From Thalassobaculaceae bacterium (GTDB lineage Bacteria; Pseudomonadota; Alphaproteobacteria; Thalassobaculales; Thalassobaculaceae), in contig JARGOG010000024.1 of NCBI GenBank assembly GCA_029212785.1, forward strand, positions 41-64,040: 64,000 bases of DNA, written 5' to 3'. This document shows positions 36,038 to 60,011 of this stretch, piece after piece. The notes beneath the pieces are model-generated. The model ran no database searches and had not been told where the DNA came from. It was given only the letters and a program-made list of their open reading frames with translations. Both the position numbers and the translations under genes were made by a program. The stretch's first letter is position 1; every line of letters begins with the position of its first letter.

Positions 36038-36796
36038 CTAGATAATCTCGAAATTCGACGTCGACAACTCGGACGTGCTGACACCGACAAGCGTGACGGT
36101 GTTGTTCGATCCGAGCGTGATAACCGCGTTTCCACCGGAATCCGCCGTTGCCGCCAGAGCCGCCGATGCCGACGTGATGCTGCTGCTGTTCACGCCGGAC
36201 TGGATCTGGATCACATCCTCGCTCGTGCTGAAATTGAGAATCTGATCGACCGAGGAATCCGACAGAAAGACGAACTTGTCCGCCCCGCCGCCGCCATCCA
36301 TCGTGTCGTTTCCGAAGGCACCGATGATCGAGTCCGCGTCGAGGTTGCCATAAATCAGGTCGTTGCCGATCCCGCCGCTCAGCGTGTCGGCCCCTTGTCC
36401 GCCATAGACGGTATCGTCGCTGCTTCCCGCGAGAATCACGTCGGCGCCCTGGTTGCCGTAGATCAGGTCGTTCTCGCTCTCGGCGATGATCTGATCGTCG
36501 CCGAGATTTCCGAAGATCGAGTCCGCCCCGACCCCACCATAAATTATGTCATTGCCTTGGCCGCCAAAGACAAAATCATCGCCGTTACCCGCCGATAGAC
36601 GGTCATCGCCCTGATTTCCATAAAGGATATCATCGTCGGTGCTGGCGTAGATCTGGTCGTTGCCGGTTCCTCCGGACAGGGTATCGTTGGCGCCGAGAGC
36701 TGAAATCGTGTCGTTGCCAGCGCCCCCCACGATGAAGTCCGCCGAGTTCGTACCCAGCAGCAACTCGTTACTGGAATCCCCGCCAATCGAAGCCAT
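36038..36796 (-). CDS. Small acidic calcium-binding RTX-repeat protein (RTX-2), putative T1SS substrate
   Basis: Nearly all RTX nonapeptides (GGAGNDTIS, GGTGNDQIY, GGQGNDIIYGGVGADSIFG...). C-terminal ADKFVF...ILNFSTSEDVIQI motif. Terminus is SNFEII. ATG 36794-36796 has GGGAGG 6 nt upstream; the listed GTG at 36802 is the alternative. Confidence 0.85.
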   Translation of the reverse strand: MASIGGDSSNELLLGTNSADFIVGGAGNDTISALGANDTLSGGTGNDQIYASTDDDILYGNQGDDRLSAGNGDDFVFGGQGNDIIYGGVGADSIFGNLGDDQIIAESENDLIYGNQGADVILAGSSDDTVYGGQGADTLSGGIGNDLIYGNLDADSIIGAFGNDTMDGGGGADKFVFLSDSSVDQILNFSTSEDVIQIQSGVNSSSITSASAALAATADSGGNAVITLGSNNTVTLVGVSTSELSTSNFEII

Positions 36797-36864
36797 GACC
36801 ACCCTCCCACATTCTCAACTACGAAGAGCGTACTCCGACAGCAGGCGCCGCTGCAAACATCCGA

Positions 36865-38151
36865 CTAAAGGCTCCAGTACCGCCTGTCCGCCGGAAGCTC
36901 CGACGGCTTGAGAGCGGACTTCACGTCGATCAGGAGGCCGCCGGACCGCAGGCGGGTGCCGAGACGGCGCGCGCCGCCCTCCAGAAACGCGCGGTGCGGG
37001 CTCGCCAGAATCAGCGCGTCGAGATCGACCAGGCTGTCCGCGCCGACAAGGTCGATGCCGAGCAACCGTCGGGCCACGGCGGTATCGACCAGGGGATCGG
37101 CGACGAGCATCTTCGCGCCCAGCACCGACAGGCCAGTGACGATGGGCGGCACCTGGCTGTTCCGCGGGTCGGAGACGTTCTCCTTGAACGCGACCCCCAT
37201 GACCCCGATGCGGGCACCCGCGACGGCCGTGCCGCCGGCTCCCAGCAAGGTCACCGTCTTCTGCACCACCCTTTCGGACATGGTGTCGTTCAGCCGGCGC
37301 GCGGCGCGGATCAGCTCCGGGTAGTAGCCATGGGCTTCGGCCTTGGCGATGAGATAGTAGGGGTCGACGCCGATGCAGTGGCCACCGACCAGACCCGGCG
37401 TGTACGGCGCGAAATTCCACTTGCTGCGGGCGGCGGCAAGCACGTCCTCGGTCCGCAGACCGAGGCGGTCGTAGATCTGGGCCAGCTCGTTCATCAGGGC
37501 GATGTTCACGTCGCGCTGGATGTTCTCCGTGATCTTCGACGCCTCAGCCACCCGGATCGACGGCGCGGCGTGCAGGCCCGCTGGCACGATCCCGGCATAA
37601 AGCGCCATGACCCGCGCCAGAGTTTCCGCGTCCTGACCGGAGACCACCTTCACCACATCGCCGAGTCCGTGGGTGGTGTCTCCCGGATTGATCCGCTCCG
37701 GGGAGTAACCGAGCTTGAAATCCGCCCCGACGACGAGACCGGAAGCCTCGGCGACGATCGGCCCCACGATCTCCTCCGTCGCCCCCGGGTGAACCGTGCA
37801 CTCGACGACGACCAGACCGCCCGGTCGGATGGCGCCGCCGACAATCCTCGCGGCATCGGCGAGCGGGCCGAGATCCGGCCGGCGGCTGTCGTCGATCGGT
37901 GTCGGCACGGCGACGATGAAGACCTGGGCCTCCGCGAGCTCACGGGCGTCCGAGGAGAAGCGCAGGCCGGCGAGAAGATCGATCATCCCGCCTTCCGGGT
38001 CGTTGCGGTCGATACCCTTGGCGAGATCCGTTATCCGCGCCGCGTCGATGTCGAAACCGATGACCGCACGACCGGCGCCGGCGAAGGCGAGCGCCAAAGG
38101 CAGGCCGACATAGCCGAGGCCGAGGATCGCGACGGTGCTGTCGTCGCTCAT
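36865..38151 (-). CDS. Nucleotide-sugar 6-dehydrogenase (UDP-glucose/GDP-mannose dehydrogenase family, TviB/WbpO-like)
   Basis: N-terminal VAILGLGYVGLPLALAF Rossmann motif. Catalytic-Cys segment LVGGHCIGVDPYY. Later GVAFKENVSDPRNS. Confidence 0.9.
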   Translation of the reverse strand: MSDDSTVAILGLGYVGLPLALAFAGAGRAVIGFDIDAARITDLAKGIDRNDPEGGMIDLLAGLRFSSDARELAEAQVFIVAVPTPIDDSRRPDLGPLADAARIVGGAIRPGGLVVVECTVHPGATEEIVGPIVAEASGLVVGADFKLGYSPERINPGDTTHGLGDVVKVVSGQDAETLARVMALYAGIVPAGLHAAPSIRVAEASKITENIQRDVNIALMNELAQIYDRLGLRTEDVLAAARSKWNFAPYTPGLVGGHCIGVDPYYLIAKAEAHGYYPELIRAARRLNDTMSERVVQKTVTLLGAGGTAVAGARIGVMGVAFKENVSDPRNSQVPPIVTGLSVLGAKMLVADPLVDTAVARRLLGIDLVGADSLVDLDALILASPHRAFLEGGARRLGTRLRSGGLLIDVKSALKPSELPADRRYWSL

Positions 38152-39002
38152 CGCATTTCCTCCCGCGCGAAGTCTCGCAGCGCCGTCGCCGTGTCCCGCG
38201 GCGCGAAACCCAGGGCCGAAGCGGCGGCGATGTCGATGGTGTACGGCGCCTTGTCCGGCGGGCCTTCCTCCACCGTAGCCGCCAAGCCGCTTCCCTCGGC
38301 CAGGCAGGCCACCACATCGCGCACCCGAACAGCGTCGCGGCTGGCGACCGGGACGGCGGCAAACCCGTCCGGCAGCGCCGTCAGCGCATGCGCGGCGAAG
38401 GCGGCCACGTCCTGGACATGGACCACATTGTTGAAGGCCGCGTCGGCATTGGAGATTCGGACTGTCTCGCCGCGCCGGAGTTTGCCAAGCACTTGCACCG
38501 GCCAGTTGCGCGCGGCACCGCCGCCGATCACCGCCGGCAGGCGGATCGCCAGCGACCGACCACCCCGCTCGGCCACCGCCCGCTCTCCCAGGAGCTTCGA
38601 CAGGCCGTAGGCTACCGGATCCACCACGGGCGTGTCCGGTGTGACGGCCGTCCCGGAGATGGTGCCGTGGATCGAGAGGCTGGAGAGATAGATGAACACG
38701 CTGACATCGGCCGCGGCGAGACGCGCGGTGGCCACGGCATTGTCGCGGATCAGGCTGGCGGCCGGCACCGCATTCGGAGCGCCGGTCGGCGGCGAGGTAG
38801 CGGCCGCGTGCACGATCGCGTCCAGGCGGCCCGGAAGCGGATCGTCGCCGGCCAGATCGCCCCGCCAGGTCTCGCCGTCGGCCAGATCGTCCGGCAGCGG
38901 CGAGGCCCGATGATGGGCGACCACGTCATAGCCCTCGGCCCTGAGCCACCTGGCGATCGCACGGCCGGAAAAGCCCGCCGCCCCGGTGACCAGGACCCGC
39001 AT
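38148..39002 (-). CDS. NAD-dependent epimerase/dehydratase (extended SDR)
   Basis: MRVLVTGAAGFSG, catalytic YGLSK. ATGA overlap with the downstream dehydrogenase gene. Confidence 0.85.
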   Translation of the reverse strand: MRVLVTGAAGFSGRAIARWLRAEGYDVVAHHRASPLPDDLADGETWRGDLAGDDPLPGRLDAIVHAAATSPPTGAPNAVPAASLIRDNAVATARLAAADVSVFIYLSSLSIHGTISGTAVTPDTPVVDPVAYGLSKLLGERAVAERGGRSLAIRLPAVIGGGAARNWPVQVLGKLRRGETVRISNADAAFNNVVHVQDVAAFAAHALTALPDGFAAVPVASRDAVRVRDVVACLAEGSGLAATVEEGPPDKAPYTIDIAAASALGFAPRDTATALRDFAREEMR

Positions 39003-39005
39003 GGA

Positions 39006-40756: not shown

Positions 40757-40775
40757 ATGCCTTGGTCTCCGGCTG

Positions 40776-41438
40776 TCAGGAAATGAGCGTCCAGTTGTAG
40801 TCGCCGGTGTAACCGGCTTCCTCGAAGATCGCGACCCACTCGTGCGGGTAGCCGTGGGTATAGGCCGTCAACACCCAGTCGAGGAAGAGGTCGCGCGCCT
40901 CTTCGGTGCGGTAGCTGTCGACCTGGACATAGGCCTTGCCATCCTTGGTCACCCGCATGATCTCCTGCAGCGCCGTGATCAGTTCCGGCTTCTTCAGGTT
41001 GTGCAACGTATTGAGCGAGATGACCGCGTCGAAACTATTGTCCGGGAACGGCAACCTGACCGCAGATCCCAGGTGCAGCCGGCCGATCGCCTCCGGCTCG
41101 CAATGCTTGAGCGCGTATTCCGAGACATCCAGGCCGAACGCCTCCAGTCCCGGGCAGGCGATCATGAAGTCCTTCACCAGGAAGCCTTTGGCGGCGCCGA
41201 CATCCAGCACCCGCATGCCCGGCTCCAGGCCGAAATGCTCGATCATGTCCTTGGCGACCGGGACCCAGCGTCCGTCGTAGCGGTATCCGCCATAACCGTA
41301 TTCACGCGGGCCGTCGAAATAGGTCTCGCCGTATTCCCGGCTGATGCGGATGTGCTCGTCGGTCTTGGCGTGCTCGCGCGCTTTCACGTTGCGCTTCGGC
41401 TTCGGCAGCGCGTCGAGCAGATTGATCTCGCGACCCAT
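40776..41438 (-). CDS. Class I SAM-dependent methyltransferase
   Basis: Motif I VLDVGAAKGFLV, later FDAVISLNTLHN. 220 aa. Confidence 0.85.
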   Translation of the reverse strand: MGREINLLDALPKPKRNVKAREHAKTDEHIRISREYGETYFDGPREYGYGGYRYDGRWVPVAKDMIEHFGLEPGMRVLDVGAAKGFLVKDFMIACPGLEAFGLDVSEYALKHCEPEAIGRLHLGSAVRLPFPDNSFDAVISLNTLHNLKKPELITALQEIMRVTKDGKAYVQVDSYRTEEARDLFLDWVLTAYTHGYPHEWVAIFEEAGYTGDYNWTLIS

Positions 41439-41441
41439 GAG

Positions 41442-42323
41442 TCAGCCTCCGGTGGCTTGGCGGTGGACCTTGGCCAGGCCCTCGGCAAGGGGGGTATAGC
41501 GGAAATCGGGGAAGGCGTGAAAGGTGGCCGACGGGTTGAACGGCCGATAGCCGTTATGCGGCATCGCGCCGGAACGTGGCGTGCCCTTGATCATGATCCG
41601 AAGCGGGACATGACTGACCACCATCTCCGCCACCTCGCGGAACGAATGGACATCACCGGTCGCCCCGTTCAGCACACCGGTCGAGCGATGCATGACCATC
41701 AGCTTGATCAGTTCGCCCAGATCATCGACCAGAACGTGATCGCGCCGCTCCTCACCTTCGCCGAACAGGGTGATGTCCTTGCCGTCCATGGCCAAGCGAC
41801 GAAAGCGGTTCGGGCCGTAGCCGTTATGCGGGTCCGACGCGCCATAGACCAGGGTCGGACGCAGGATGCCGACCGGCACGCCACTCTCGTCCAGCAGCAT
41901 GCGCTCGCGTGCCAGATGCATCACCCCGTGCAGCCCCCCAGGCTCGGCGCAGTCGGTCTCGGCCAGCGGCTCCATCTTGTCCTTGTAGACCGCGTCCGAC
42001 GATATGTAGACGACATGGGCCACCGGCTGAGTCTTCAACGCCGCGACGACGGTGTTCATCATCGCGATGTTGCGCTCCAGCATTTCGCCGTTCTTGCACG
42101 GCGCTTCGGCGGAGACGACCACCAGCACGTCGTCGGCGCGCAGTTGCTCGGACAGAACAGCGGCGGCACCATCGGCCAGCAGATCTACCTGGGCCCGGCC
42201 GACCCGCTCAACCCGGCCGCCCGCCGCCTCGATCGCGTCCGCACCGGCACCGCCGACGAATCCGGCGCCGAGCACGACAGTGCAGGGCGGCAGGGCGGGT
42301 TTGGCGAGGCGATGGTCAAGCAT
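41442..42323 (-). CDS. Extended-SDR-like protein (epimerase/dehydratase fold) apparently lacking the YxxxK dyad
   Basis: Rossmann VVLGAGFVGGA and the SS..VY segment are present. At the position where the three sibling SDRs here have YGLSK/YALSK/YNKFK, this protein reads HGVMH (GGLHGVMHLARE). Confidence 0.75.
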   Translation of the reverse strand: MLDHRLAKPALPPCTVVLGAGFVGGAGADAIEAAGGRVERVGRAQVDLLADGAAAVLSEQLRADDVLVVVSAEAPCKNGEMLERNIAMMNTVVAALKTQPVAHVVYISSDAVYKDKMEPLAETDCAEPGGLHGVMHLARERMLLDESGVPVGILRPTLVYGASDPHNGYGPNRFRRLAMDGKDITLFGEGEERRDHVLVDDLGELIKLMVMHRSTGVLNGATGDVHSFREVAEMVVSHVPLRIMIKGTPRSGAMPHNGYRPFNPSATFHAFPDFRYTPLAEGLAKVHRQATGG

Positions 42324-42333
42324 GGCGATACTC

Positions 42334-43665
42334 CTAGTCCCGGGTGATCCCGAGGGTGATGTAGTCGAGACCAGCCGCCAGCGCGGCTTTCTCGTCGAGG
42401 ACCCGGTAAGGGTCGAGCACGACGGATCCGCGCATGGTGGCGGCGATGTCCTTCGGATCGAGCGCCTTATATGGGCTCCACGGCGTCATGATGCAGAGCA
42501 CGTCGGCCCCCGCCACCGCCGTCATCGGTCCGTCCGCCGCCGCGACCGCGACCGGCGCGGCGGACGCCGGGACCACCGGATCGTGGACCACGATGTCGAC
42601 ACCACCGAGCTCCGACAACAGGGCGAGCGAGGGCGAGTTCTTGGTCGAGTGGGTGTCCTGCTTGTAAGCGAGCCCGAGAACGGCCACCCGCGCCGCCGGG
42701 TTGGCGTCCAGCACCCGGGCCTTGAGCGTGCGCGCGGCCCAGCCCTTGCGCCAGGCGGAGTTCTCGACCCATGCCTTCACGATGCCGGTGTCGGTCTTAT
42801 GCGCCGCCCCCAGGCGCATCACCGTGGCGAGGTCGCGCTCCAGGTTGCCTCCGGCGAGTCCGAGCCCGGGAGCGAGGTAGCTGTACGCGCCGATCCGTCG
42901 GTCGAGCTTCAGGGCCGGCGCGATCTCCGACCAGTCGGCCCCGACATGCTCGCAGAGCTCGGCCATGGTGTTGGCCACACCAACCGAGGCGACGAGGCAC
43001 ATGTTGATCGAGATCTTGGCCAACTCCGCGCTCTCGTAGCGCATCGGCAGGATGGGGCAGCCGAACGCCTCGAGGTATGTGCGGAACGGCACCGGCAGCA
43101 CAGCTTCAGGATCGGCGCAGCCGACGATATAGCGCTCCGGCTCCAACGCGCGGTGCAAGGCAATGCCGAAGACCAAGGTCTCCACCTGATAATGCAGCGG
43201 GCCGCGCACGCCGACCTTGCCCTGGTCGATTCCGCGGGTGAAGCCCGGTGGCACCTGGCTCAGGATGACCAGAGTCGCATCGTCGCGCAGCGCCGGGGCA
43301 ACCACCGCCAGCAGACGTTCGACCGCAGAGAGGTCGCTGGCACCGGTGTCGTCGGTGGGCACGTCCGGCGCGAGGTAGACCACGTCGGCCCGTGCCAGAT
43401 CTCTGGTCTCCTCGGTGACGGTGATGCGGTGCCGGTTGGTGGCGAAGGTCTCGGCGAGATCGGGCTCGGAGACCGGCAGTTCCACCCCTTGCAGCCGTCC
43501 GACCAACTCCTTGCCACGCAGACGGGCGATCAGATCGACATCCGGATCGAACAGGATCGTGTCAAACCCCTTGGCCGCCGCCGCCGTACCGGAGACGAGG
43601 CCAAGATGAGTCATGCCGCAATAGGCAATGACGGGGCTGGGCTCGATGGAAGCGGCAGGGGTCAT
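42334..43665 (-). CDS. UDP-glucose/GDP-mannose dehydrogenase family protein, apparently Cys-less variant
   Basis: Family-typical DRRIGAYSYLAPGLGLAGGNLERDL and VLGLAYKQDTHSTKNSP segments. The GG-C-x-x-KD catalytic segment reads GGNLERD, so Asn replaces Cys. Confidence 0.8.
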   Translation of the reverse strand: MTPAASIEPSPVIAYCGMTHLGLVSGTAAAAKGFDTILFDPDVDLIARLRGKELVGRLQGVELPVSEPDLAETFATNRHRITVTEETRDLARADVVYLAPDVPTDDTGASDLSAVERLLAVVAPALRDDATLVILSQVPPGFTRGIDQGKVGVRGPLHYQVETLVFGIALHRALEPERYIVGCADPEAVLPVPFRTYLEAFGCPILPMRYESAELAKISINMCLVASVGVANTMAELCEHVGADWSEIAPALKLDRRIGAYSYLAPGLGLAGGNLERDLATVMRLGAAHKTDTGIVKAWVENSAWRKGWAARTLKARVLDANPAARVAVLGLAYKQDTHSTKNSPSLALLSELGGVDIVVHDPVVPASAAPVAVAAADGPMTAVAGADVLCIMTPWSPYKALDPKDIAATMRGSVVLDPYRVLDEKAALAAGLDYITLGITRD

Positions 43666-44606
43666 GCGGGTGCTCCGAACCGGTCATAGGCCTGACGCGC
43701 GAGGCCGCGCAAGGTGCGGTTCAGCCAGAGATCATTATCGATTTCCGAACCGGATCCGGTCTCGCAGAGCCGGCGGAAATGGGCGTACTCGGCTTCCCAG
43801 GTCGGGTCGGCCTGGACCAGGGTCACCGACTCCTCCGGCGGTCGGCCGGACGGCAGGACGCGGGTCCGCCTGGTGAAGGTGCTCGGCCCCCATTTGCACA
43901 GGGACTCGATATGGGCGGTCCCGTTCTCGGCCAGCACGTCGCAGGTGAAATGGTTGCGCCAGGACAGCAGCGTCATCTCGAGCTGCACGGTCGGACCGCT
44001 CTCGGGATCGGCGGCGATCATCACCTGATCGAAGGCCCTGTTCTCGTGCCGCCGCGCCACCCGGGTCTCGAATTCCCAGTTGCCCGCGTCGGGGATCCAG
44101 AACTTCAGCGTGTCGAGCAGGTGCGAGCCAAGGTCTGGCAGAACGCCGGCCTCCTGGTCGCGCCAGGCGCTGTCGCGCACCAGCCGCGCCGTTCCGTTGC
44201 CGTAGAACATGCGTAGGCTGTAGATCCGGCCGAGTTCGCCCGAGTGGATCAGGTCGCGCATCCGAACGTAATGCGGCTCGAACCGGTGATTATACGCGGT
44301 GACGCAGACCGCTCCGGTGGAGCGCGCCACCTCGGACAGCTCCTCCAGCACCCAGTCGTCCTCGGCCACCAGCGGCTTTTCGACCAGCACGTGCTTGCCC
44401 GCCCCGAGAAGGGTCTTCAGCAGTGCCGGCTTCGGCGCATCCGGCGTGCAGACGATGGCCGCATCAAATGCGTGGAAGGCGACCTCGGAGAGGTCCTTGT
44501 AGTCGGCTTCATTGGAGATCGGATCGACCACGGCGACACAGTCCGCGCCGGCGACAGCCTTGCGCTTGTGCCCCTGCACTCCGTAGCCGATGACGATGAC
44601 CCGCAT
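43662..44606 (-). CDS. Gfo/Idh/MocA family oxidoreductase
   Basis: MRVIVIGYGVQG Rossmann start, VLVEKP motif, 314 aa. Confidence 0.85.
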   Translation of the reverse strand: MRVIVIGYGVQGHKRKAVAGADCVAVVDPISNEADYKDLSEVAFHAFDAAIVCTPDAPKPALLKTLLGAGKHVLVEKPLVAEDDWVLEELSEVARSTGAVCVTAYNHRFEPHYVRMRDLIHSGELGRIYSLRMFYGNGTARLVRDSAWRDQEAGVLPDLGSHLLDTLKFWIPDAGNWEFETRVARRHENRAFDQVMIAADPESGPTVQLEMTLLSWRNHFTCDVLAENGTAHIESLCKWGPSTFTRRTRVLPSGRPPEESVTLVQADPTWEAEYAHFRRLCETGSGSEIDNDLWLNRTLRGLARQAYDRFGAPA

Positions 44607-46172: not shown

Positions 46173-46183
46173 CGCGCCGCTCC

Positions 46184-51679: not shown

Positions 51680-51756
51680 TGCCTGTCTCCATGACCATCA
51701 GCTGCGAACATCAACTGCCGCGGGGTCTAGCGCGTCCCGGACGCCCGGCCAAGGGC

Positions 51757-53220
51757 TCAGTTCGCGCGAAACCCGATTGCACGATCGGTCGCGTCAGCCA
51801 CCACGTTTGACCAATCGCCACCCTTCTGACGCAGCACTGTCAGCGACGGATACCACGGCACCGTCTCGCCCTCGGCGAACCAGAACCACAGCGGATCACG
51901 CTGCATCAACACCAGCCCGGGCACGCCGAGCGCCCCGGCCAGATGCGCTGCCACGCTCGATATAGTGACGATCCTGTCGAATGCAGCAATCTGCGCCGTC
52001 AAATCATCAAGCGCGTCGCGAATATCTTCGGCCGGGTTGTCGACCGGCACCGGAAGCCCGCGCGCCCGCAGCTCGGCGATCTCCTCCGGGTCCGGGTCAT
52101 ATTGCAGGCTGACGACAGTGCCACCCAGGGCGGACATCACCGGAGCCAACATCTCCAACGGGATCGACTTACGCCCGCCGGTGCGCCGGTTCCCGCTGCG
52201 CCAGCAGAGCCCGGTATAGGGTCCGGGTCCAAGAGCCGCCAGGCGCTCGCGCCAGGACGTCACACGCTCCGGGTCCGGTATCAGATAGGGTGCCGACGGC
52301 GCGTATCCGGGCCTGCCGGGGCCGAAGAGCACGGGCAGCCGCGGTAACGCGCTCTGCGCCGCCGCGCCCCTGACCAGAGCGGCGGCCGGAGGATCACTCC
52401 GCGCGACGACGGTGATATCCGGGAACGATCGCCCGAACAGCGGCACGAGCCGGGGATCAGCCTCCAGCATGACGGGGCCACCGGCCCGCAGCACCGCCGT
52501 CGAAACTAGACCCGCGAAAAGGATCTCGTCGCCGACCCCGAACTGAGCGGTCAATGCCAGATGGCCACCGGCGATCGGCTCCCCGTTCCACAACGGCGCG
52601 TCGATCAGATGTGCCCGGGCGTCCGGATCGGGATCGCGCCAGCGCGCGTCGTAATCGTCGTAGCCGGACCAGTTCCGTCGGGCGAGCCGCATCCAGCCCC
52701 GGGCGTAGCGGGCGCGGGTTTCGGTCGGATCGCGGGCAATCACATCGTCCAGCCGCGCTTCGGCGTCCTCCCGCCGACCGAGCTCGATTTCGCTCAGTGC
52801 CAGGTTCACCGAAGCGTCGACATCGCTCGGGTCGGCCGCTGCGGCCCGCGCGAACAACTCCCGCGCGACGGCGGCGCGGCCCTGTTTCTGCAGGCGCCCT
52901 CCCATCATCTTGGTGGGAAGCGCGCGACCGGGGTCCACACAGGCCAGCCACGACCAGCGCGGATCTTCCAGGACCGGTGACAGTCCAGCCGCGAGGTCCA
53001 GGACGGCCGCGGCCGCCGGTGCGATGGCCAGGGCCCGCCGCACGGCGATCAGGGCGTCGTGGCCGCCCTTGATCTGGGCCCGTGCAAGGTTCGCCCAAAC
53101 CCGCATGTCTTCGGGATGCAGGTCAGCGACCGACGCCAGTGCCTCCATCGCCGTCTTCCAGTCGCCGGCGGCAATGGCCGCCCGCGCCCGGGCTTCCAAC
53201 GTCGCCAGCGCGGTGCTCAT
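51757..53220 (-). CDS. TPR-repeat protein fused to a GT9-like (heptosyltransferase-fold) glycosyltransferase domain (copy 1)
   Basis: N-terminal ~200 aa of TPR-like helices. The C-terminal half carries GT9-like motifs (QFGVGDEILF; RIVTISSVAAHLAGALGVPGLVL). Confidence 0.8.
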   Translation of the reverse strand: MSTALATLEARARAAIAAGDWKTAMEALASVADLHPEDMRVWANLARAQIKGGHDALIAVRRALAIAPAAAAVLDLAAGLSPVLEDPRWSWLACVDPGRALPTKMMGGRLQKQGRAAVARELFARAAAADPSDVDASVNLALSEIELGRREDAEARLDDVIARDPTETRARYARGWMRLARRNWSGYDDYDARWRDPDPDARAHLIDAPLWNGEPIAGGHLALTAQFGVGDEILFAGLVSTAVLRAGGPVMLEADPRLVPLFGRSFPDITVVARSDPPAAALVRGAAAQSALPRLPVLFGPGRPGYAPSAPYLIPDPERVTSWRERLAALGPGPYTGLCWRSGNRRTGGRKSIPLEMLAPVMSALGGTVVSLQYDPDPEEIAELRARGLPVPVDNPAEDIRDALDDLTAQIAAFDRIVTISSVAAHLAGALGVPGLVLMQRDPLWFWFAEGETVPWYPSLTVLRQKGGDWSNVVADATDRAIGFRAN

Positions 53221-54521
53221 TCCACCGTCGGCCGTGTACCGGGCACCGGCGTTTCCGGTGGCGCGCCGGGAAAGCCGTCAGCCTGCGCCGTGGAGGCGAA
53301 ACTCGGCAGGTTCCGCGTCCTCACCCGGTCGATCAGCTCCAGGTGCTGCGGAAGGCAGACCGTCTCCAGATCATAGGTCTTGACCGCGAAGTCGCGCGCG
53401 GCGGCGCCCAGCCGGGCTCGACGGGCCGGATCGTCGAGCAGGTCGCAGATCCGCGCGCACAACGCCTGGTGGTCAAAGAAGTCGACCAGAACCCCGGTCT
53501 CGTCGTCGACGATGGCCTCCTTCAACGGCGGCGTATTGGACGCGACGATCGTGCAGCCGACCGACATGGATTCCAACAATGACCAGGACAGGACGAACGG
53601 GAAGGTCAGGTACATGTGCACGCGGCTGACCTGAAGAATCTGCAGATAGTGCGAGTACGGCACACGGCCCATGAAATGCACTCTGTCCGGGTCGAAGCTG
53701 ACCTCCGCCTGCATCTTTTCACGCCAACTCGGATAGTCGGAAGGCTTCGAGCCGTAGCTGGTATCGTCGCCACCGACGACGACGATCTGAGCATGCGGGC
53801 GCGCCTTCTGAATCAGCGGCAGCGCCTTCATGAACACGTCGAAGCCGCGATACCGTTCCAGATTCCGCGCGAGATAGGTCACCACCTCGTCATTTCGGGT
53901 CAGTACGGTGCCGTCCGGCATCGGGACCTGAACGGCGGCATTGGGCACGCAGACATTGGTCCGCACGCCGTCATGGATGATCGAGGTTCTTGACTGATAG
54001 GCGGCCGGGATCTGCTGCCATTGGAACCGTGTCGGCGTGATGTTCCAATCAGCCTCTTCCATCGACATGAGGAGATGGACATTCCGCATCCGCGTTCGAC
54101 AAAGCCGGTCGATATCGACCTCTTCACCGCCGAAGCCGACATCCGCGCCGGTGCCGTGATAGTAATACTCGGCGAAGTTCAGAACCGGAACATCCGGGTA
54201 CACGTCCTTCAGAAACAGACCTTCGCCCCAGCCCGAATGCACGCAGATGATATCGGGAACGAAGCCTTCCTCCTTCAGGCCGAGGCAGCTTCTAACAACC
54301 GCCTGACCGTACAACAGGTGTTCGTCGAGATTGCGCACATAGCGATGGGAGTCGGTTCGCGGCTCGCGCTGCAGGTCGTATCGGACCTTGCGGACACCGG
54401 GGATCTCGAGCTTCGGCCGTCGGGTGACGAACACGACCTCATTCTTCGGATCTTTGGCCAGATACTGGATCAGATGCGCGTATTGCGCCGGCATGTTCTG
54501 ATGAACAAACAAGAATCGCAC
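53217..54521 (-). CDS. Glycosyltransferase family 4 (GT-B, group 1)
   Basis: MRFLFVHQN start. C-terminal E-x7-E region: SWSLLESMSVGCTIVASNTPPLKEAI. Confidence 0.9.
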   Translation of the reverse strand: MRFLFVHQNMPAQYAHLIQYLAKDPKNEVVFVTRRPKLEIPGVRKVRYDLQREPRTDSHRYVRNLDEHLLYGQAVVRSCLGLKEEGFVPDIICVHSGWGEGLFLKDVYPDVPVLNFAEYYYHGTGADVGFGGEEVDIDRLCRTRMRNVHLLMSMEEADWNITPTRFQWQQIPAAYQSRTSIIHDGVRTNVCVPNAAVQVPMPDGTVLTRNDEVVTYLARNLERYRGFDVFMKALPLIQKARPHAQIVVVGGDDTSYGSKPSDYPSWREKMQAEVSFDPDRVHFMGRVPYSHYLQILQVSRVHMYLTFPFVLSWSLLESMSVGCTIVASNTPPLKEAIVDDETGVLVDFFDHQALCARICDLLDDPARRARLGAAARDFAVKTYDLETVCLPQHLELIDRVRTRNLPSFASTAQADGFPGAPPETPVPGTRPTVE

Positions 54522-54607
54522 GTCGCGCGCTCCGCATTCCCTGGATACCGGGGGGTTGCTTACAACCTAGCCCCTAGCGATGCAAACGGCAGAGCGGTTG
54601 GCGGTCC

Positions 54608-55888
54608 TCAAGACTTGTGGTCCGCCAATAATTCATCCCGCCACGCCGTGAGCCTGTCGACAATACGCGGCATGAAATCGTCCCATTCCTCGACCAGCTC
54701 GCGACGTTCCAAGCGCGTGTTCGGATACCAGCCGGTGGTCGCTCCGTTCTGCCCCCAGCGCCAGTCGGCGACCCAGTGAAGCAGCACCCAGCACGGTCGG
54801 TCCAGCGCCCCGGCAATATGCGCGACCGCGCTGTCGACCGTAATCACCAGATCAAGCTGGTCGATCAACCCCGCCGTATCGGCGAAATCATCGATATGGT
54901 CGCTGAGGCTGACGACGCGCGCATCCTGCTCGGCGTCCGCCGCGCCCTGACCGACCTGCAACGTGTAGAAGTCGATACCTTCGACATCGAAGAGCATTGC
55001 CATGGCGCTGAAGGGGCAGCTGCGCTGCTGATCGCGCTGGTGATTCGGGTTGCCGGCCCAACATACGCCAACCCGGGGCCGTCCTGGCGATACCGGAAGC
55101 CGGAACGGGTGCTCCGGTGGGTCGATATATCGACCCGGCGCCGGGAGCGACTCGGCGCGGGTTCCGAACCTGAACGGCAGGCTCATGATCATTTCGGCGG
55201 CATCCGCCATATTCGGTTTGATCCGGGTGACGGCATGCTTGACGCCTCGGGCCGCTCCGAGCAGTCGGGCGAGCGGCGGGGTGCAATAGACGATCACCTC
55301 GATCCCCGCCCGGCTCAGATCCGCCGCGTACCGCACGAACTGCACCGCGTCTCCCGCCCCCTGCTCGATCACGCAGACTACCGAAGAAGCGGATGACGGA
55401 TCGCCGTCCCACGCCGCCACGCCGTGATTGCCCAATTCCTCGAGCGCCTTCCAACGTGACCAGCGGCGCTCGTAAACCGCGAGCCCCTCCTCGTAGTTGC
55501 CGACAGTCAGAAGCTGCAACGCCGCAGCGACATCGATTCCGAAGTCGTTCGGCCGTGCGATCTGCGCCCGGCGGAACAGCTTGAGCGCCACTTCGTGGTT
55601 CCCGCGCATCCGGTTGGTGTTGCCGTGGTTGACCAGAAGCTCGGCCGACCCCGGCTCGATCAGCGCAACCAGTCTCATGTAATGGAGGGCACCGGTCACA
55701 TCGCCCAGGCGCGCCGACACCATCGCATGCTGATTCCAACCGCGCGGATCCATCGGCCGCGCGGATATAACCTTCCGCGCCCAGGCTTTCGCCAAGGTCA
55801 GCTTGCCGGACTCGATCAGTTGGGGGATGAGACGCAGCGCCTGATCGTAATCAAGGTCTCTTGAGGGAGAATCAGGTGTTTCCGCCAT
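54608..55888 (-). CDS. TPR-repeat / GT9-like glycosyltransferase fusion (copy 2)
   Basis: Trimmed to ATG 55886-55888 (MAETPDSPSRDLDYDQ), 4 nt after the upstream stop. GT9-like motifs EQGAGDAVQF and LVITVDSAVAHIAGALDRPCWVLL. Confidence 0.8.
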   Translation of the reverse strand: MAETPDSPSRDLDYDQALRLIPQLIESGKLTLAKAWARKVISARPMDPRGWNQHAMVSARLGDVTGALHYMRLVALIEPGSAELLVNHGNTNRMRGNHEVALKLFRRAQIARPNDFGIDVAAALQLLTVGNYEEGLAVYERRWSRWKALEELGNHGVAAWDGDPSSASSVVCVIEQGAGDAVQFVRYAADLSRAGIEVIVYCTPPLARLLGAARGVKHAVTRIKPNMADAAEMIMSLPFRFGTRAESLPAPGRYIDPPEHPFRLPVSPGRPRVGVCWAGNPNHQRDQQRSCPFSAMAMLFDVEGIDFYTLQVGQGAADAEQDARVVSLSDHIDDFADTAGLIDQLDLVITVDSAVAHIAGALDRPCWVLLHWVADWRWGQNGATTGWYPNTRLERRELVEEWDDFMPRIVDRLTAWRDELLADHKS

Positions 55889-55892
55889 CGGT

Positions 55893-56867
55893 CTATCTGG
55901 TGATTTCTCGAGTCCAGAATGACACCACGTCGCGCTCCATGCGCTCCAGCGTATAGTGCGAGGCCGTTTCAAGGCCGTGACGGACCTTGGAGTCGCCGCC
56001 ATCACCATCGAAGGCACGGATCGCCGCCGCCAGTCCGTCGGCCGCCGCGAACCAGTCCTCGGCACCGCACCAGATCCCGTTGTCTTCGGTCGCGTAGGAT
56101 CGGCCGCCGTCGCCCATGAAACCGACAACAATACAGCCGCTCGCCATCGCCTCGATCGGCGGCAGTCCGAATCCCTCCAACCGGCTCATGGCCAGAAACA
56201 CCGCGCTCTCCGCGAGAATCTCGGCGGTCTCGCCTTCGGTCATCCCGTCGATGACCACCACGGGCACGTCGGCGAGCTGCGGATGCGTTCGCTGAAATGT
56301 CTCTACGATGAAGTTGGCTTCAATGCGCATCTTGCGCGGCATCAGTGCGATCTGGCGCTTTTTCTGCGCCGGACGGAACCGGGTGTGATCAATGCCGTTG
56401 TGGATAATCGGCACATCCGCGACCTGGAATGTCCGCTTGATGTAATCGGCGATCACTTCGCTGCAACTGAACACGCCATGCAGACCGCGGTCCTCGAAGC
56501 TCTTCCGGGGGCCAAGGCCATGGTAGAGATAGAAATGGTTCTGGCAGAACATGAGGCGGCGGACGTCGAACCGCTCCAGCTTCTTCAACTGGTCGCCCCA
56601 CGGCTCCGGGATCACGAAGATGTCCCCGGCCTTCAAGGCAAACGACGGTCCTAGAACGTCGTAAGGGATATCCTCTTCGAAGAACGAATCCCTGTTGTTG
56701 TCGACCAGCACGATCCGCGCGTCGAACCCGTTGCGGTTCAGCATGGCCACATGATGGTGCGCAATGCGCACTCCGCCGAGCGGATAGCCGAAATGTTTCG
56801 ACAGATACAGGATACGGCGCCCGCGCCGTGCTGCCGCACCGGCCCCGGTTTCTGACATGGACATCAC
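55893..56867 (-). CDS. Glycosyltransferase, GT4-like (GT-B)
   Basis: C-terminal MSRLEGFGLPPIEAMASGCIVVG motif. 324 aa. Starts 4 nt after the HlyD stop. Confidence 0.8.
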   Translation of the reverse strand: MMSMSETGAGAAARRGRRILYLSKHFGYPLGGVRIAHHHVAMLNRNGFDARIVLVDNNRDSFFEEDIPYDVLGPSFALKAGDIFVIPEPWGDQLKKLERFDVRRLMFCQNHFYLYHGLGPRKSFEDRGLHGVFSCSEVIADYIKRTFQVADVPIIHNGIDHTRFRPAQKKRQIALMPRKMRIEANFIVETFQRTHPQLADVPVVVIDGMTEGETAEILAESAVFLAMSRLEGFGLPPIEAMASGCIVVGFMGDGGRSYATEDNGIWCGAEDWFAAADGLAAAIRAFDGDGGDSKVRHGLETASHYTLERMERDVVSFWTREITR

Positions 56868-56871
56868 GCGA

Positions 56872-58254
56872 TCAGGGCTCTCGTAGGGCTTTCTGGAAGC
56901 TGCGAATCAGCGGGTCCATCAGATAGGTCAACAGCGTACGCTCGCCAACTCCCAACAGGGCCATTGCCGGCATGCCCGAAACAAGATGCTGCCCTTCCAG
57001 GATGTGATCCAGGGAGTCCTTATTCAGACGGATGTCGACGCGATAATACGGCGATCCCTTGTCGGACTGGATCACATCCGGCGACACCTGGATCAGTTCG
57101 CCTTCGACCGGGTGGGTGAAGCGCTGGCTGAACGCCGTCAGCCGAACCGTCACCTTCAGATGCTCGATGTCCTTGGTGAGCGAATCGATATCCTTGGGGT
57201 TCACCCGAGCGATGACCACCAGTTCCTCATCGTCCGGAACGATTTCCATCAACACCTGGCCGCCGCTGATGACCGCCCCTTTGGTGTTCACGGCCAGCCG
57301 CAGAACACGTCCGCTCTCCGGCGCCCGGATGTCGAGTTGATCGAACATCTGCTCCGTCACCGGCAACTGCTGCCCGGATTCGCGGATTTGCCGGGCGACG
57401 GCATCCAACTGCGTCGCGACCTGGGCTTCCTGTTGCCGTCCAGACTGAAGGATGCGGATGTCCAACTCGCTCAAGCGCTGCCGCATGCCGGCGATGTCGC
57501 CGACGAGCATACTGCGCGAGCCCTTGAGGCTGGCCCTGGTTCGCTCCAATGCCCGTACGCGGGACAGCCGCTCAAGCCCCTTGGCGTAGAGTTCCTGTAC
57601 GTTCACCAGCTCTTCATCAATGAGCCGGATCTCCTCGTCGAGCGACGCCAGGCGTTCCTGCGATGCTCCAATCCCCGTCCTGGTCTGAGCCATGAGCTCA
57701 TGAATGAGTTCGACCTCCCCCCCGCGCGCCGCCATTCTGGACGCGAGCAGAGATTGCTCCGACTCGATCATTTCCATGATTGTGGGGTCATCCGCACGGT
57801 CGAGGATCTCCGGCGGGAGTTCCATGCTGTCCTCGCCCCTGCGCTCCGCCTCTAGGCGGGCCTGGGTAATGAGTCCCCCGAAATACCGCTTGCGCAGGAT
57901 CTCACGCTCCGCATTCCCGCGCGTCGGGTCAAGTACGATCAGCTTGTCCCCTTTGTGGACATGTTGACCTTCGCGCACGAGCAACTCTTTGATCATCCCT
58001 CCGGACGGGTGCTGGACGATGCGCGGCTCACGGTCGACCCGGATCGTACCCGCCGCAATCACGGAGCTCTGCAACGGCGCCAGGGCGGCGAAAGCGCCGA
58101 ACACGCCGAAAAACAAGAACATGATCGAATAGCCAAGCGCCATGCCCCGATGCCATTTCGGCACGGCGGAAGCAGCAATCGACTCGTACGGATCCAGGTC
58201 GATCAGCCCGCCCTGGCGTTTTGGCACCAATCCGCCCTGTTCAACGATGCTCAT
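56872..58254 (-). CDS. HlyD family type I secretion periplasmic adaptor
   Basis: One N-terminal TM segment, a long coiled-coil middle and a C-terminal beta domain. Family-typical VVSGMPAMALL-like LVSGMPAMALLGVGERTLLTYL. Its ATG overlaps the ABC gene stop (TGATG). Confidence 0.9.
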   Translation of the reverse strand: MSIVEQGGLVPKRQGGLIDLDPYESIAASAVPKWHRGMALGYSIMFLFFGVFGAFAALAPLQSSVIAAGTIRVDREPRIVQHPSGGMIKELLVREGQHVHKGDKLIVLDPTRGNAEREILRKRYFGGLITQARLEAERRGEDSMELPPEILDRADDPTIMEMIESEQSLLASRMAARGGEVELIHELMAQTRTGIGASQERLASLDEEIRLIDEELVNVQELYAKGLERLSRVRALERTRASLKGSRSMLVGDIAGMRQRLSELDIRILQSGRQQEAQVATQLDAVARQIRESGQQLPVTEQMFDQLDIRAPESGRVLRLAVNTKGAVISGGQVLMEIVPDDEELVVIARVNPKDIDSLTKDIEHLKVTVRLTAFSQRFTHPVEGELIQVSPDVIQSDKGSPYYRVDIRLNKDSLDHILEGQHLVSGMPAMALLGVGERTLLTYLMDPLIRSFQKALREP

Positions 58255-60011
58255 CAGCTTCTCCCGGCGATCTTCGGTTCCTGGTCGCGGGCGGCAACCT
58301 GCGGCTGGGGCTTCGTCGGCACCGGCGTAATCACGGAATCCCGCGGCGCGAACTTCTGAACCACACCGTCTCGCAGCACCAGGACCTTGTCGACATGCTG
58401 CAGGACGTTGATGCGATGGGCGATCAGGAACACACTCGTTCCCTGCTCCTTCATCGCGTGCAGCGTGTTCTTCAGCGCCTCCTCACCCTCGCTGTCGAGG
58501 TTTGAGTTCGGTTCGTCCAGAATCAGGACCAGCGGGTCGCGATACAGAGCCCGGGCAAGCGCGATACGCTGTCTCTGCCCTCCCGACATCAGCGTGCCGG
58601 CGTCACCGACCGGCGTATCGTACTCCTTCGGCATTTGCTGGATGATTTCGTGCAGTCCAGCGAGTTTCGCGGCACGGATGATCGCCTCGGCATCGGGATC
58701 TTCTTCCAGGCGGCTGATGTTGTCCCGCACCGTCCCGTCGAACAATTCGACACTCTGAGGCAGATATCCGAAATACCGGCCGAGATCCTCCGCCGGCCAG
58801 GAATAGACGTCGGTGCCATCCAGGCGGACGGCGCCGGCCGTAGGGCCGATCAGACCGACCATGATCGACGCCAGCGTGGTTTTGCCGGCCCCCGACGGGC
58901 CGATGACGCCAATAACCTCACCCGGCATGATCTCGAACGTGACATTGGAGAGGATCGGACGGCTCATTTTGTCCAGATCGTAGGTCACGCCCTCGATCGT
59001 CAAATGCCCCGTGGGCCGCGGCGGGACAACGGTCAGGCGCGGCTTCTCCGCGACCTCACTCAACGCCTTCTCGACACTGCGGTACGCGGCGCGGGCATCG
59101 AGCAGATTCCGGTAGCTGCCGATCAGCGATTCGAGCGGCATCAGTGCACGGCCGACCAAGATCACGGACCCCATGATGACGCCCGGCGACATCGTGCTGC
59201 CCGGCTGGATCATCTGGATCACCGCCACGGTCATGATGCCGATCTGGACCACCATGCGGCCCCATTTTGTGATGGCGCCGATGATGGCCGCCCGCCGAGA
59301 GGCCACACCAACGTGGTACCGGCCCTCTTCACTGTCGCTATACCACCGGCGGACGATGGTGGGCGTCATGCCCATCGCTTCGACCACTTCGGCGTTGCGC
59401 GCGGCCACATAGGCCAGTTTCGTCGCCGGCCTCAACGATTTTTCGGCCTTGGCAATCGGCGCCTTGGACCAGCGGTCGTTGACGATGGCGAGAGTGAACA
59501 GGAAAATGGCACCGATCAGCGCGACCACGCCGACCCAGAAGTTCAGCAGGAACAAGATTCCGCAGAACAGTGGGATCCAGGGGATATCCAGGACGTTGAA
59601 GATCGATTGGCTGGTCAGGAACGTCTTGACCTGATCGAAGCTTCCAAGCACCTGGGCCGAACGCTGTACACCGCGTTGCATCGACCTGGAGATCGACAGA
59701 TCCAGCAACCGCGCGCCGAGTTTTCGGTCCAGATAGTCGCCGACCTCGATCAGCGTGAAACTGCGCGCGATATCCACACCGGCTTGCACGCCGAAAGCTA
59801 TGAAGGCCATCGCGAAGAGCATGCCCAGTGTCGCCATGCTGTAACTCGACAGCACCTTGTCGAACACCGAGAACATGTAGATCGGCAGAGTCAGGATCAT
59901 GGAATTGACCACGAAACTGAACAGGAAGATGGCAACGAAGGCGCCCTTGCATGCCGAAAAGGCTTCATGCAGGGCGTCTTTACTCGCCACGTGTTTGCGC
60001 AAACCACTCAT
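58254..60011 (-). CDS. Type I secretion system permease/ATPase, PrtD/HasD class (no N-terminal C39/CLD domain)
   Basis: 585 aa; the TM domain begins within ~25 residues. Walker A GPSGAGKTT, signature LSGGQRQRIALARAL, Walker B LILDEPNSNLD. Confidence 0.9.
   Translation of the reverse strand: MSGLRKHVASKDALHEAFSACKGAFVAIFLFSFVVNSMILTLPIYMFSVFDKVLSSYSMATLGMLFAMAFIAFGVQAGVDIARSFTLIEVGDYLDRKLGARLLDLSISRSMQRGVQRSAQVLGSFDQVKTFLTSQSIFNVLDIPWIPLFCGILFLLNFWVGVVALIGAIFLFTLAIVNDRWSKAPIAKAEKSLRPATKLAYVAARNAEVVEAMGMTPTIVRRWYSDSEEGRYHVGVASRRAAIIGAITKWGRMVVQIGIMTVAVIQMIQPGSTMSPGVIMGSVILVGRALMPLESLIGSYRNLLDARAAYRSVEKALSEVAEKPRLTVVPPRPTGHLTIEGVTYDLDKMSRPILSNVTFEIMPGEVIGVIGPSGAGKTTLASIMVGLIGPTAGAVRLDGTDVYSWPAEDLGRYFGYLPQSVELFDGTVRDNISRLEEDPDAEAIIRAAKLAGLHEIIQQMPKEYDTPVGDAGTLMSGGQRQRIALARALYRDPLVLILDEPNSNLDSEGEEALKNTLHAMKEQGTSVFLIAHRINVLQHVDKVLVLRDGVVQKFAPRDSVITPVPTKPQPQVAARDQEPKIAGRS

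Follow-up and report, generated by a model that had tools for sequence, protein, structure and literature searches.

A conserved gene cluster of a Thalassobaculaceae bacterium that may couple glycosylation of RTX proteins by TPR-GT9 enzymes to type I secretion

In a 64,000-nucleotide stretch of DNA from a Thalassobaculaceae bacterium (contig JARGOG010000024.1; hereafter the window), genes for a PrtD-type type I secretion system (T1SS) lie in one cluster with genes for soluble glycosyltransferases (GTs), a set of sugar enzymes and a small RTX protein. We propose that this cluster carries out the cytoplasmic O-glycosylation of RTX proteins, coupled to their export by the T1SS, and that the transfer is catalyzed by enzymes in which a tetratricopeptide repeat (TPR) domain is joined to a GT9-like catalytic domain (TPR-GT9). 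This is the reading that we favor, and we hold it with somewhat less than even confidence. It is based on the observed gene content, on assigned folds, on synteny and on the neighborhoods of the genes in other genomes and metagenomes.

Genes were called from a list of open reading frames (ORFs) combined with a GC3 codon-position filter, families were assigned with Pfam and NCBIfam, and membrane segments were located by a hydropathy scan. A preliminary description of this DNA had reported a block of 23 co-directional genes, and its outline is fully present in the ORF list: 23 consecutive coding sequences (CDS) run on the minus strand from 60011 down to 36038, with start/stop overlaps at 58254 (1 nt), 53217-53220, 50855-50862, 43662-43665, 39923-39926 and 38148-38151 and a widest intergenic gap of 154 nt, between 50243 and 50398. 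The ORFs of genes g4, g9, g12 and g13 carry spurious 5′ extensions, their likely starts being 55864, 50243, 47946 and 47200, respectively. Pfam and NCBIfam bore out the earlier family calls, with refinements for g7, g8, g10, g11, g14 and the last of the genes resembling UDP-glucose dehydrogenase. The earlier statement that no product outside the T1SS is membrane-embedded also stood, since in the block membrane segments were confined to the ATP-binding cassette (ABC) protein (five) and the HlyD protein (one); weak hydropathy signals in g6 and g22 correspond to an Ala-rich TPR helix and a Rossmann strand. The boundary placed at 60011 did not hold, as the cluster runs on through a GT8-like gene, a Glf gene and a third TPR-GT gene (60127-63828), and in relatives this upstream extension goes on with a Gfo/Idh/MocA gene and another TPR protein. 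The genes for secretion, sugar transfer and the RTX protein are as follows.

58254..60011, minus strand: T1SS ABC permease/ATPase, PrtD type, no C39/CLD domain (TIGR01842 594.5 bits, cutoff 510; PF00005; five hydrophobic segments)
56872..58254, minus strand: HlyD-family periplasmic adaptor (TIGR01843 304.9 bits, cutoff 208.65; one N-terminal transmembrane segment; 1-nt overlap with the ABC stop)
55893..56867, minus strand: g3, soluble GT-B enzyme, Glycos_transf_1/GT4-like, called GT1 here (PF00534 8.6e-10)
54608..55864, minus strand: g4, TPR domain plus GT9-like catalytic domain (PF01075 25.9 bits, cutoff 22, over a short stretch; TPR matches)
53217..54521, minus strand: g5, soluble GT4, Glyco_trans_4_3 plus Glycos_transf_1 (PF12000 2.5e-57)
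51757..53220, minus strand: g6, second TPR-GT9-like protein (TPR families; catalytic domain aligns with the g4 family)
36038..36802, minus strand: g23 (RTX-2), 254-aa RTX protein, β-roll plus C-terminal secretion domain (PF00353 129.5 bits, 6 stretches)
60127..60873, plus strand: 248-aa protein with a DxD motif (DCDF), putative GT-A/GT8-like enzyme (PF01501 faint, E = 0.19)
62146..63828, minus strand: TPR560, third TPR-GT9-like protein (TPR families; catalytic motifs WGEQGIGDEIWF shared)

For the block's ABC protein, the HlyB and LssB models of NCBIfam stayed below their own cutoffs. The ABC subfamily, the adjacent HlyD gene and a predicted RTX substrate with a C-terminal signal are together consistent with a PrtD-type system. 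No TolC-like outer membrane factor was found by Pfam among the scanned CDS of the window; because outer membrane factor genes are often unlinked to those of the T1SS, the missing gene does not exclude a functional T1SS.

The TPR-GT9 enzymes are the component on which the proposal turns. A homologue search with g4 gave 977 matches, mostly annotated as 'tetratricopeptide repeat(-containing glycosyltransferase family) protein', with orthologues at 60-70% identity, one of them from a Thalassobaculaceae metagenome-assembled genome (MAG). The AlphaFold model of g4, built from 37 sequences (pLDDT 94.7), has nine TPR helices, after which comes a compact GT-B domain of two lobes. At full length it matched the TPR-containing GTs SPINDLY (SPY) and OGT with TM ~0.3-0.38 and rmsd >12 Å. 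When the catalytic domain was modelled alone (pLDDT 94.6), the best Foldseek matches were WaaF (1psw) and WaaC (2h1h) (TMq 0.63, E = 1e-7), followed by a Veillonella GT9 and then by TibC (4rb4/4rap; TMq ~0.5). The GT-B domain of g4 is therefore recognizable as Glyco_transf_9 both by PF01075 and by fold search, and because the catalytic domain alone fits the GT9 heptosyltransferases best, the earlier label 'TPR-GT9-like' is right; membership of GT41 (OGT/SPINDLY) was rejected on the same ground and on the poor full-length superposition. Neither g6 nor TPR560 has a Pfam GT9 match, though both align with g4, and sequence-only PDB searches of g4 and g6 returned TPR proteins only. Taken with the flagellin neighbors of distant relatives described below, the TPR plus GT-B architecture and the GT9/TibC-like fold of the model fit a protein-directed glycosyltransferase.

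The window copy of TPR560 lacks ~150 N-terminal residues relative to its 710-715-aa orthologues, with an in-frame stop upstream of its TTG start, and may be truncated or frameshifted. In Azospirillum chromids such as NZ_CP007794.1 and NZ_CP032322.1, 11-12 separate TPR-GT9-like genes per replicon form a large paralogous expansion.

The core ABC-HlyD-GT1-TPR-GT9 was found in eight independent loci: the window, L002, L003/L088, L006, L005, L157, L089/L090 and L158. The full order from the T1SS to the nucleotidyltransferase-kinase gene is kept in a Thalassobaculaceae MAG (L002), in JGI metagenome contigs (L003, L004, L088) and in the distant locus L006, whose g4 is 37% identical to that of the window. 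Other genomes and metagenomes keep the gene order, with proteins that are 37-70% identical, and the arrangement is therefore not due to chance. Azospirillum halopraeferens (L005) and the metagenome contig L157 both retain ABC-HlyD-GT1-TPR-GT9 together with a divergent pair of GT4_3 and g6-type TPR-GT genes, and continue with a Gfo/Idh/MocA gene, a TPR560-type TPR-GT, an RTX protein and a further TPR protein. L089/L090 combine the T1SS and GT1 with g4-, g6- and TPR560-type GTs, Glf, the 248-aa protein and an RTX protein. In L158 (4178-9664), ABC-HlyD-GT1-TPR-GT9 stands by itself, no other GT, sugar or RTX gene being found in the 19.6-kb locus.

The individual transferases are conserved in the same manner. 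Each of the three TPR-GT orthogroups (g4, g6 and TPR560) is retained across clusters, with g6 orthologues in L002, L005, L006 and L089. Orthologues of g3 directly follow HlyD in L002, L003, L005, L006, L089, L157 and L158, and g5 is kept in L002, L003, L005, L006, L089, L096 and L157. The 248-aa protein, for which a sequence search found no PDB match, has orthologues in L002, L003, L006 and L089. Its homologues also adjoin a TPR-GT9-like gene in ~20 short marine metagenome contigs (L102, L118, L123, L127, L132, L136, L138-L150), in which no T1SS, RTX or flagellin gene was detected.

A link between TPR-GTs and small RTX proteins emerged from the third orthogroup. Whereas a metagenome scan with the single TPR560 protein gave no matches, an alignment of the TPR560 orthogroup identified L088, L089/L090, L091-L093, L094 and L096 as the closest relatives. 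Apart from L088, which is directly orthologous to the arrangement in the window, each of them has a g23-like RTX gene adjoining the TPR-GT gene. The RTX gene lies directly downstream of the TPR560-type gene in five loci (L005, L157, L092, L094 and L096), and g23-like RTX genes are found inside the clusters of L005 and L157 (511 or 526 aa) and of L089 (559 aa). The preliminary description had asked whether T1SS, TPR-GT9, gmhA/gmhB and RTX genes form one unit in relatives; the T1SS, the soluble GTs and the RTX gene do co-occur, whereas the sugar module can be replaced. A triplet of Gfo/Idh/MocA, TPR560-type and small RTX genes is conserved at L005 13839-18968, L157 13779-19113, L092 2878-8294 and L096 1790-5930, and the C-termini of the triplet RTX proteins carry the motif '...GV(S/T)xxDLxDFxF'.

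The RTX protein that ends the block, RTX-2, is the putative acceptor and T1SS substrate. It is acidic, as described earlier (37 D+E versus 2 K+R), but has 254 aa rather than 252; Ser and Thr make up 18.5% of its residues. At the C-terminus ('...GVSTSELSTSNFEII') it matches the RTX proteins of L005, L089, L092 and L157, and the C-termini of cluster-linked RTX proteins ('...GVSTLDLDDFQF', '...GVTTLDLTDFEFS' and '...GVSTVDANDFEF') are like its own. Because this C-terminal motif is common to them, the cluster-linked RTX proteins and g23 constitute one family of small proteins, consisting of a β-roll and a secretion signal only. At repeat positions 7 and 9, Ser/Thr frequencies were 0.48 and 0.23 in cluster-linked RTX proteins versus 0.36 and 0.13 in a general set, a sample too small to be used.

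On plasmid pAB510f of Azospirillum sp. B510, a TPR-GT is accompanied by a GT4, a T1SS and a Ca-binding protein of 2751 aa, and in A. melinis a TPR-GT is paired with a Ca-binding protein of >2600 aa. In the B510 locus (L007, 194245-219978), GT4, TPR-GT, SEL1 protein, HlyD and C39-type ABC genes are grouped with the giant Ca-binding protein, and a SIS-domain protein, more TPR proteins and a GDP-fucose synthase adjoin them; by its gene content, L007 is a second cluster type that unites a TPR-GT with a putative T1SS substrate.

Several observations weigh against an RTX protein as the acceptor. A distance of 25 kb separates RTX-2 from the TPR560-type gene in the window. When the search started from the RTX protein, no close RTX-2 orthologue was found, the best match having 55% identity on a 1-kb contig, and the contexts of three RTX-side matches were mixed: one was a GT2-methyltransferase-RTX-T1SS operon in Nisaea and two were unrelated. 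RTX or T1SS genes occur at only ~4 of 80 loci of the broad TPR-GT9 family, so that the association is one-directional, and ~68 of the 80 have neither RTX nor flagellin neighbors. In addition, six or seven GTs and no fewer than three sugars point to a glycan of considerable size, which might impede transit through the T1SS. A large glycan is nevertheless possible, because the a-type flagellin island of Pseudomonas aeruginosa encodes a multi-gene cytoplasmic pathway that puts sizeable O-glycans on proteins exported through a narrow channel. Further points on this side, the fold match of g4 to a capsule polymerase, the solubility of lipopolysaccharide (LPS)-core enzymes and the product of the exp cluster, are taken up with the polysaccharide explanation below.

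The Nisaea operon (L154 5883-14113; Nisaea acidiphila CP102480.1, of the same bacterial family) comprises a 306-aa HAD-like protein, a 764-aa GT2, a methyltransferase, an RTX protein of 326 aa that is 40% identical to g23, a T1SS ABC protein and HlyD.

Flagellins are the second kind of secreted protein found near these enzymes. A profile built from initial matches detected flagellin genes ≤10 kb from a TPR-GT9-like gene in 11 loci; eight came from the 80 loci of the genome sample and three from the 66 of the metagenome sample. Against g4, g6 and TPR560 the flagellin-linked members have roughly equal scores (111-193 bits), and for this reason they are an outgroup and not orthologues of any of the three. 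The TPR-GT9-like family recurs, then, beside two classes of secreted, repeat-rich structural proteins, RTX proteins and flagellins, both of which exit the cell unfolded through narrow channels.

These neighborhoods raise the question of whether the cluster glycosylates a flagellin, or another non-RTX secreted protein, with the T1SS and RTX genes as loosely linked cargo. Enzymes of the FlmG type, which join TPR and GT-B domains, do modify flagellins (PMC7591256), and the 11 loci of the broader family point the same way. However, no flagellar gene is present in the 64-kb window or in the orthologous loci L002-L006, L089 and L157, the flagellin-linked members are distant relatives, and the T1SS-GT1-TPR-GT9 operon structure is kept with its start/stop overlaps. 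Flagellin glycosylation at this locus was rejected, and the explanation as a whole appears very unlikely.

FlmG of Caulobacter and Brevundimonas is nevertheless a close architectural parallel and the experimental model for such enzymes. Its TPR domain binds flagellin and its GT-B domain sets the donor, the reaction taking place in the cytoplasm before export via a narrow secretion channel (PMC7591256; 10.1101/2022.03.25.485807). Like FlmG, the enzymes described here are soluble, with a TPR domain at the N-terminus and a GT-B domain at the C-terminus (in g4, nine TPR helices and two Rossmann-like lobes, with no transmembrane segment), and distant relatives of g4, g6 and TPR560 adjoin flagellin genes. 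They differ in that their neighbors are a T1SS and RTX proteins instead of flagellins and the flagellar type III secretion system, that three to five TPR-GT paralogues occur per cluster instead of one, and that the donor pathway is heptose-like, whereas that of FlmG provides pseudaminic or legionaminic acid; no flagellar or pseudaminic/legionaminic acid genes were found in the window or the orthologous loci.

A second parallel is provided by the heptosyltransferases of the GT9 and TibC/AAH (BAHT) groups, to which the catalytic domain of g4 is related by its modelled fold, and a heptose-type activation pathway is co-encoded here. The substrate of TibC and AAH is a secreted protein, to which they add sugar while it is still in the cytoplasm. 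The Waa enzymes and TibC are without an N-terminal TPR fusion, sequence identity to the GT9 and TibC proteins is only 13-16%, and the window contains no autotransporter substrate of the BAHT kind.

We next consider whether the glycan could instead be built on a lipid carrier. No Pfam or NCBIfam match to a priming transferase, flippase, polymerase, Wzm/Wzt or PCP/OPX protein was found in the window block, and apart from the T1SS ABC there is no polytopic protein in window positions 24000-64000 or in the ~21-kb loci L002, L003, L005, L006, L088 and L089. The membrane-protein survey of relatives reached ~6-14 kb upstream of the T1SS (13.8 kb in L089; ~6 kb beyond 64000 in the closest relatives). 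The reported absence of Wzx/Wzy, exporter and priming genes thus holds as far as these data reach, across the window block and the ~21-kb orthologous loci. It is weaker evidence than had been assumed, because LPS-core enzymes of the GT9 and GT4 families are also soluble or peripheral and work without Wzx/Wzy or a priming transferase.

The main rival explanation is that the cluster makes a surface polysaccharide, an exopolysaccharide (EPS) or an LPS-type glycan, to which the T1SS and the small RTX protein are accessory. The acceptor for TPR-GT9, GT4 and GT1 would be lipid-linked or the lipid A-core, met at the inner membrane face; genes for priming and flipping would be located elsewhere, or else the flippase would be MsbA. 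We regard this explanation as possible, though somewhat less probable than the glycosylation of RTX proteins. In its favor, the GT9 fold is that of LPS-core heptosyltransferases, TPR domains also act as scaffolds in capsule polymerases, one of which (8qoy) is among the full-length fold matches of g4, TIGR04323 and TIGR04324 mark carbohydrate clusters, and O-antigen and capsule loci typically contain TviB-like, Glf and heptose-type genes. Against it, priming, flippase, polymerase, Wzm/Wzt and OPX/PCP genes are missing from the window block and, within 10 kb, from seven orthologous loci, the four-gene unit stands alone in L158, a TPR560-type GT gene and an RTX gene sit side by side in a conserved pair, and distant relatives adjoin flagellins, which are protein substrates.

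One described precedent for a polysaccharide is the exp (wga-wge) cluster of Sinorhizobium meliloti, in which the PrtD/E-like proteins ExpD1/ExpD2 secrete the Ca-binding protein ExpE1, all three being needed for EPS II (PMC1403797). The likeness is one of gene composition only: both clusters have a PrtD/PrtE-like ABC protein and membrane fusion protein (MFP), a small NodO-like Ca-binding protein, GTs and nucleotide-sugar genes, with no classical Wzx/Wzy route evident (PMC1403797). The exp product is a polysaccharide, so that the same gene mix is known to serve such a product, and rhizobia are known to produce glucan in an MFP/TolC-dependent manner (PMC13438883). By contrast, the exp sugar pathway is of the dTDP-glucose/rhamnose type and not heptose-like, and the exp cluster is probably without TPR-GT9 enzymes, because no Sinorhizobium is among the genera listed for 144 plasmid records with a g4 homologue.

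A further known model that fits the polysaccharide explanation is Caulobacter, whose rsaA-rsaDE region links a T1SS, its S-layer protein substrate and glycan genes, and there the glycan is the LPS O-antigen that anchors the S-layer. That O-antigen is made on a lipid carrier with membrane components, and RsaA itself is not known to be glycosylated.

The remaining genes of the cluster encode sugar enzymes, as follows.

50855..51679, minus strand: g7, sporadic-carbohydrate-cluster 2-oxoglutarate (2OG)-Fe(II) oxygenase (TIGR04324 319 bits, cutoff 150)
50398..50862, minus strand: g8, LIC12192-family sporadic carbohydrate cluster protein (TIGR04323 136 bits, cutoff 55)
49227..50243, minus strand: g9, NAD-dependent sugar epimerase/dehydratase of the short-chain dehydrogenase/reductase (SDR) family (PF01370 6.9e-39)
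48584..49186, minus strand: g10, SIS-domain ketose-phosphate isomerase, GmhA paralogue (PF13580; TIGR00441 55 bits, cutoff 209)
48017..48559, minus strand: g11, HAD-IIIA sugar-bisphosphate phosphatase, GmhB-like (NF006506 126 bits, cutoff 178; TIGR01662 above cutoff)
47218..47946, minus strand: g12, small transaldolase (TIGR02134 338 bits, cutoff 282)
46184..47200, minus strand: g13, nucleotide diphosphate (NDP)-sugar epimerase/dehydratase, SDR (PF01370 4e-55)
44631..46172, minus strand: g14, fused nucleotidyltransferase (HldC-like, N-terminal) and sugar kinase (HldA-like, C-terminal) (PF01467 plus PF00294)
43662..44606, minus strand: Gfo/Idh/MocA oxidoreductase (Pfam)
42334..43665, minus strand: NDP-sugar dehydrogenase (TIGR03026 179 bits)
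41442..42323, minus strand: SDR epimerase/reductase (PF01370 4e-21)
40776..41438, minus strand: S-adenosylmethionine-dependent methyltransferase (PF08241)
39923-40756 (N subunit) and 39006-39926 (C subunit), minus strand: split transketolase (PF00456; PF02779 plus PF02780; NF004559)
38148..39002, minus strand: RmlD-like SDR reductase (Pfam and NCBIfam)
36865..38151, minus strand: g22, TviB-like NDP-N-acetylhexosamine 6-dehydrogenase (NF011729 361 bits; TIGR03026 336 bits, cutoff 190)
60909..62129, plus strand: Glf, UDP-galactopyranose mutase-like flavoenzyme (PF03275 3.8e-30; TIGR00031 100.6 bits, below the cutoff of 303.75)

In the preliminary description, g10 and g11 had been labelled 'GmhA' and 'GmhB' and g14 a nucleotidyltransferase-kinase. 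All three are paralogues of the ADP-heptose enzymes and not orthologues, for g10 and g11 fall below the equivalog cutoffs given above and g14, whose domain order is the reverse of that of HldE, scores 150 bits against the HldE equivalog cutoff of 521; its best PDB matches are 5x9q and 4e84 (heptose 7-phosphate kinase), and its closest relatives of solved structure are heptose enzymes of the HldC and HldA types. A true ADP-L-glycero-D-manno-heptose pathway (GmhA, HldE, GmhB) was rejected on these scores, and since g10, g11 and g14 are paralogues, their substrate may be a different ketose phosphate. The 'modified heptose or higher sugar' suggested earlier remains plausible from the enzyme set, and the failed equivalog cutoffs keep it from being established. 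Because a transaldolase, a SIS isomerase, a HAD phosphatase and an HldC-HldA-like fusion are present, the module points to a heptose-like or higher sugar; judged from the predicted enzymes, it would also yield an N-acetylhexosaminuronic acid and galactofuranose, heavily tailored. The same enzyme logic yields an NDP-octose in lincomycin biosynthesis. The module is replaceable across loci: upstream in the A. halopraeferens cluster, NTP_transf_3 and CTP_transf_3 genes stand in place of the heptose-like genes.

The genes g7 and g8, which overlap by 8 nt, form an adjacent TIGR04323/TIGR04324 pair with both members above cutoff (50398-51679), and the cluster in which the pair is embedded could help to assign its chemistry.

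The tailoring enzymes bring up one more explanation, namely that what leaves through the T1SS is not a protein but another glycosylated product built by the soluble enzymes, for instance a glycolipid or a metabolite, and that the RTX protein is a separate passenger. The 2OG oxygenase, the methyltransferase, the split transketolase and the several SDRs resemble natural-product sugar pathways; ABC/MFP glycolipid exporters exist, and DevB and HepA are among the weaker NCBIfam matches. We consider this improbable, as the ABC protein and the MFP exceed the curated cutoffs of the protein-secreting families TIGR01842 and TIGR01843, no aglycone or lipid biosynthesis genes are present in the cluster, and the co-occurrence with RTX genes is conserved.

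Beyond the cluster, directly below RTX-2, the minus-strand run is prolonged at 32299-35908 by the genes of a hybrid histidine kinase and a response regulator. The kinase contains three PAS_7, HisKA, HATPase, REC and Hpt domains and the response regulator is single-domain; the pair are possible regulators of the cluster. The remaining window genes belong to ordinary metabolism, and among them lies a second RTX gene.

27109..28071, minus strand: RTX-1, 320 aa (PF00353 62 bits), 8 kb below the block, past unrelated metabolic genes

RTX-1 is a possible further T1SS substrate. Its N-terminal motif 'YL..Y.DVA.AV..G.F.SG.EHY..FG..EGR' also occurs in an AMIN-domain protein encoded next to the A. halopraeferens cluster (L005 1384-2481; phmmer E = 8e-7). 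Promoter and terminator scans gave the same counts as in shuffled sequence. A search with the window Glf protein for DNA past 64000 led only to a 2.6-kb Logan contig, and a 118-aa fragment of the L002 upstream TPR gene, used as query, found no homologues.

Returning to the glycosylation of RTX proteins, the system might operate as follows. The sugar module would supply several activated sugars: a heptose-like or higher sugar made by the transaldolase, SIS isomerase, HAD phosphatase and HldC-HldA-like enzymes, an N-acetylhexosaminuronic acid and galactofuranose, all of which the SDRs, 2OG oxygenase, methyltransferase and transketolase would tailor. In at least three TPR-GT9 enzymes, the TPR domain would hold an unfolded or partly folded RTX protein while the GT9-like domain adds a sugar to Ser/Thr, and the soluble GT1, GT4 and GT8-like enzymes would then lengthen the glycan. 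The PrtD-type ABC protein, HlyD and an unlinked TolC would export the glycoprotein via its C-terminal signal, and Ca2+ would fold the β-roll outside the cell. We infer the acceptor, the identities of the sugars, the order of the steps and the placing of glycosylation before export. As for T1SS-coupled protein glycosylation in general, which had already been suggested, the conserved unit of T1SS, soluble GTs and RTX gene, the fold and the lack of lipid-carrier genes argue for it, and its protein acceptor is the part that we supply by reasoning. Flagellins, autotransporters and glycocins are established cases of proteins that are glycosylated in the cytoplasm and then exported. The usual view of T1SS substrates is that they leave the cell unfolded and, save for the acylation of toxins, unmodified.

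The preliminary description had named no known T1SS-coupled RTX glycosylation system. In the literature, which we covered incompletely, we likewise found no description of a dedicated T1SS-coupled glycosylation machinery or of RTX-linked TPR-GT9 enzymes; glycosylated RTX proteins themselves are known, however, as SwmA of Synechococcus and oscillin of Phormidium are reported to be glycosylated and surface-exposed (PMC3034196; PMC2943079), and swmA shares a genomic island with a glycosyltransferase (PMC7522525). No RTX neighbor was found in the cyanobacterial TPR-GT9 loci examined.

The cluster may represent a new secretion-coupled system in which modular TPR-GT9 enzymes decorate small NodO-like RTX proteins in the cytoplasm with an oligosaccharide of heptose- or octose-derived sugars and other unusual ones, and a PrtD-type T1SS from the same operon exports them, with RTX proteins and flagellins as two client classes of one widespread enzyme family; we put this forward tentatively, as a possibility falling a little short of an even chance. 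Should the product turn out to be a polysaccharide, the cluster would be a second and more tractable case of the poorly understood T1SS-dependent route by which S. meliloti makes EPS II. If RTX proteins are the acceptors, the system would add a new post-translational layer to RTX biology, explain how SwmA and oscillin could acquire their sugars and test the glycan load that the T1SS channel tolerates. Its modular enzymes and replaceable sugar module could serve the glyco-engineering of secreted proteins. It would also extend the logic of FlmG, in which the TPR domain reads the acceptor and the GT-B domain reads the donor, to a second secretion route.

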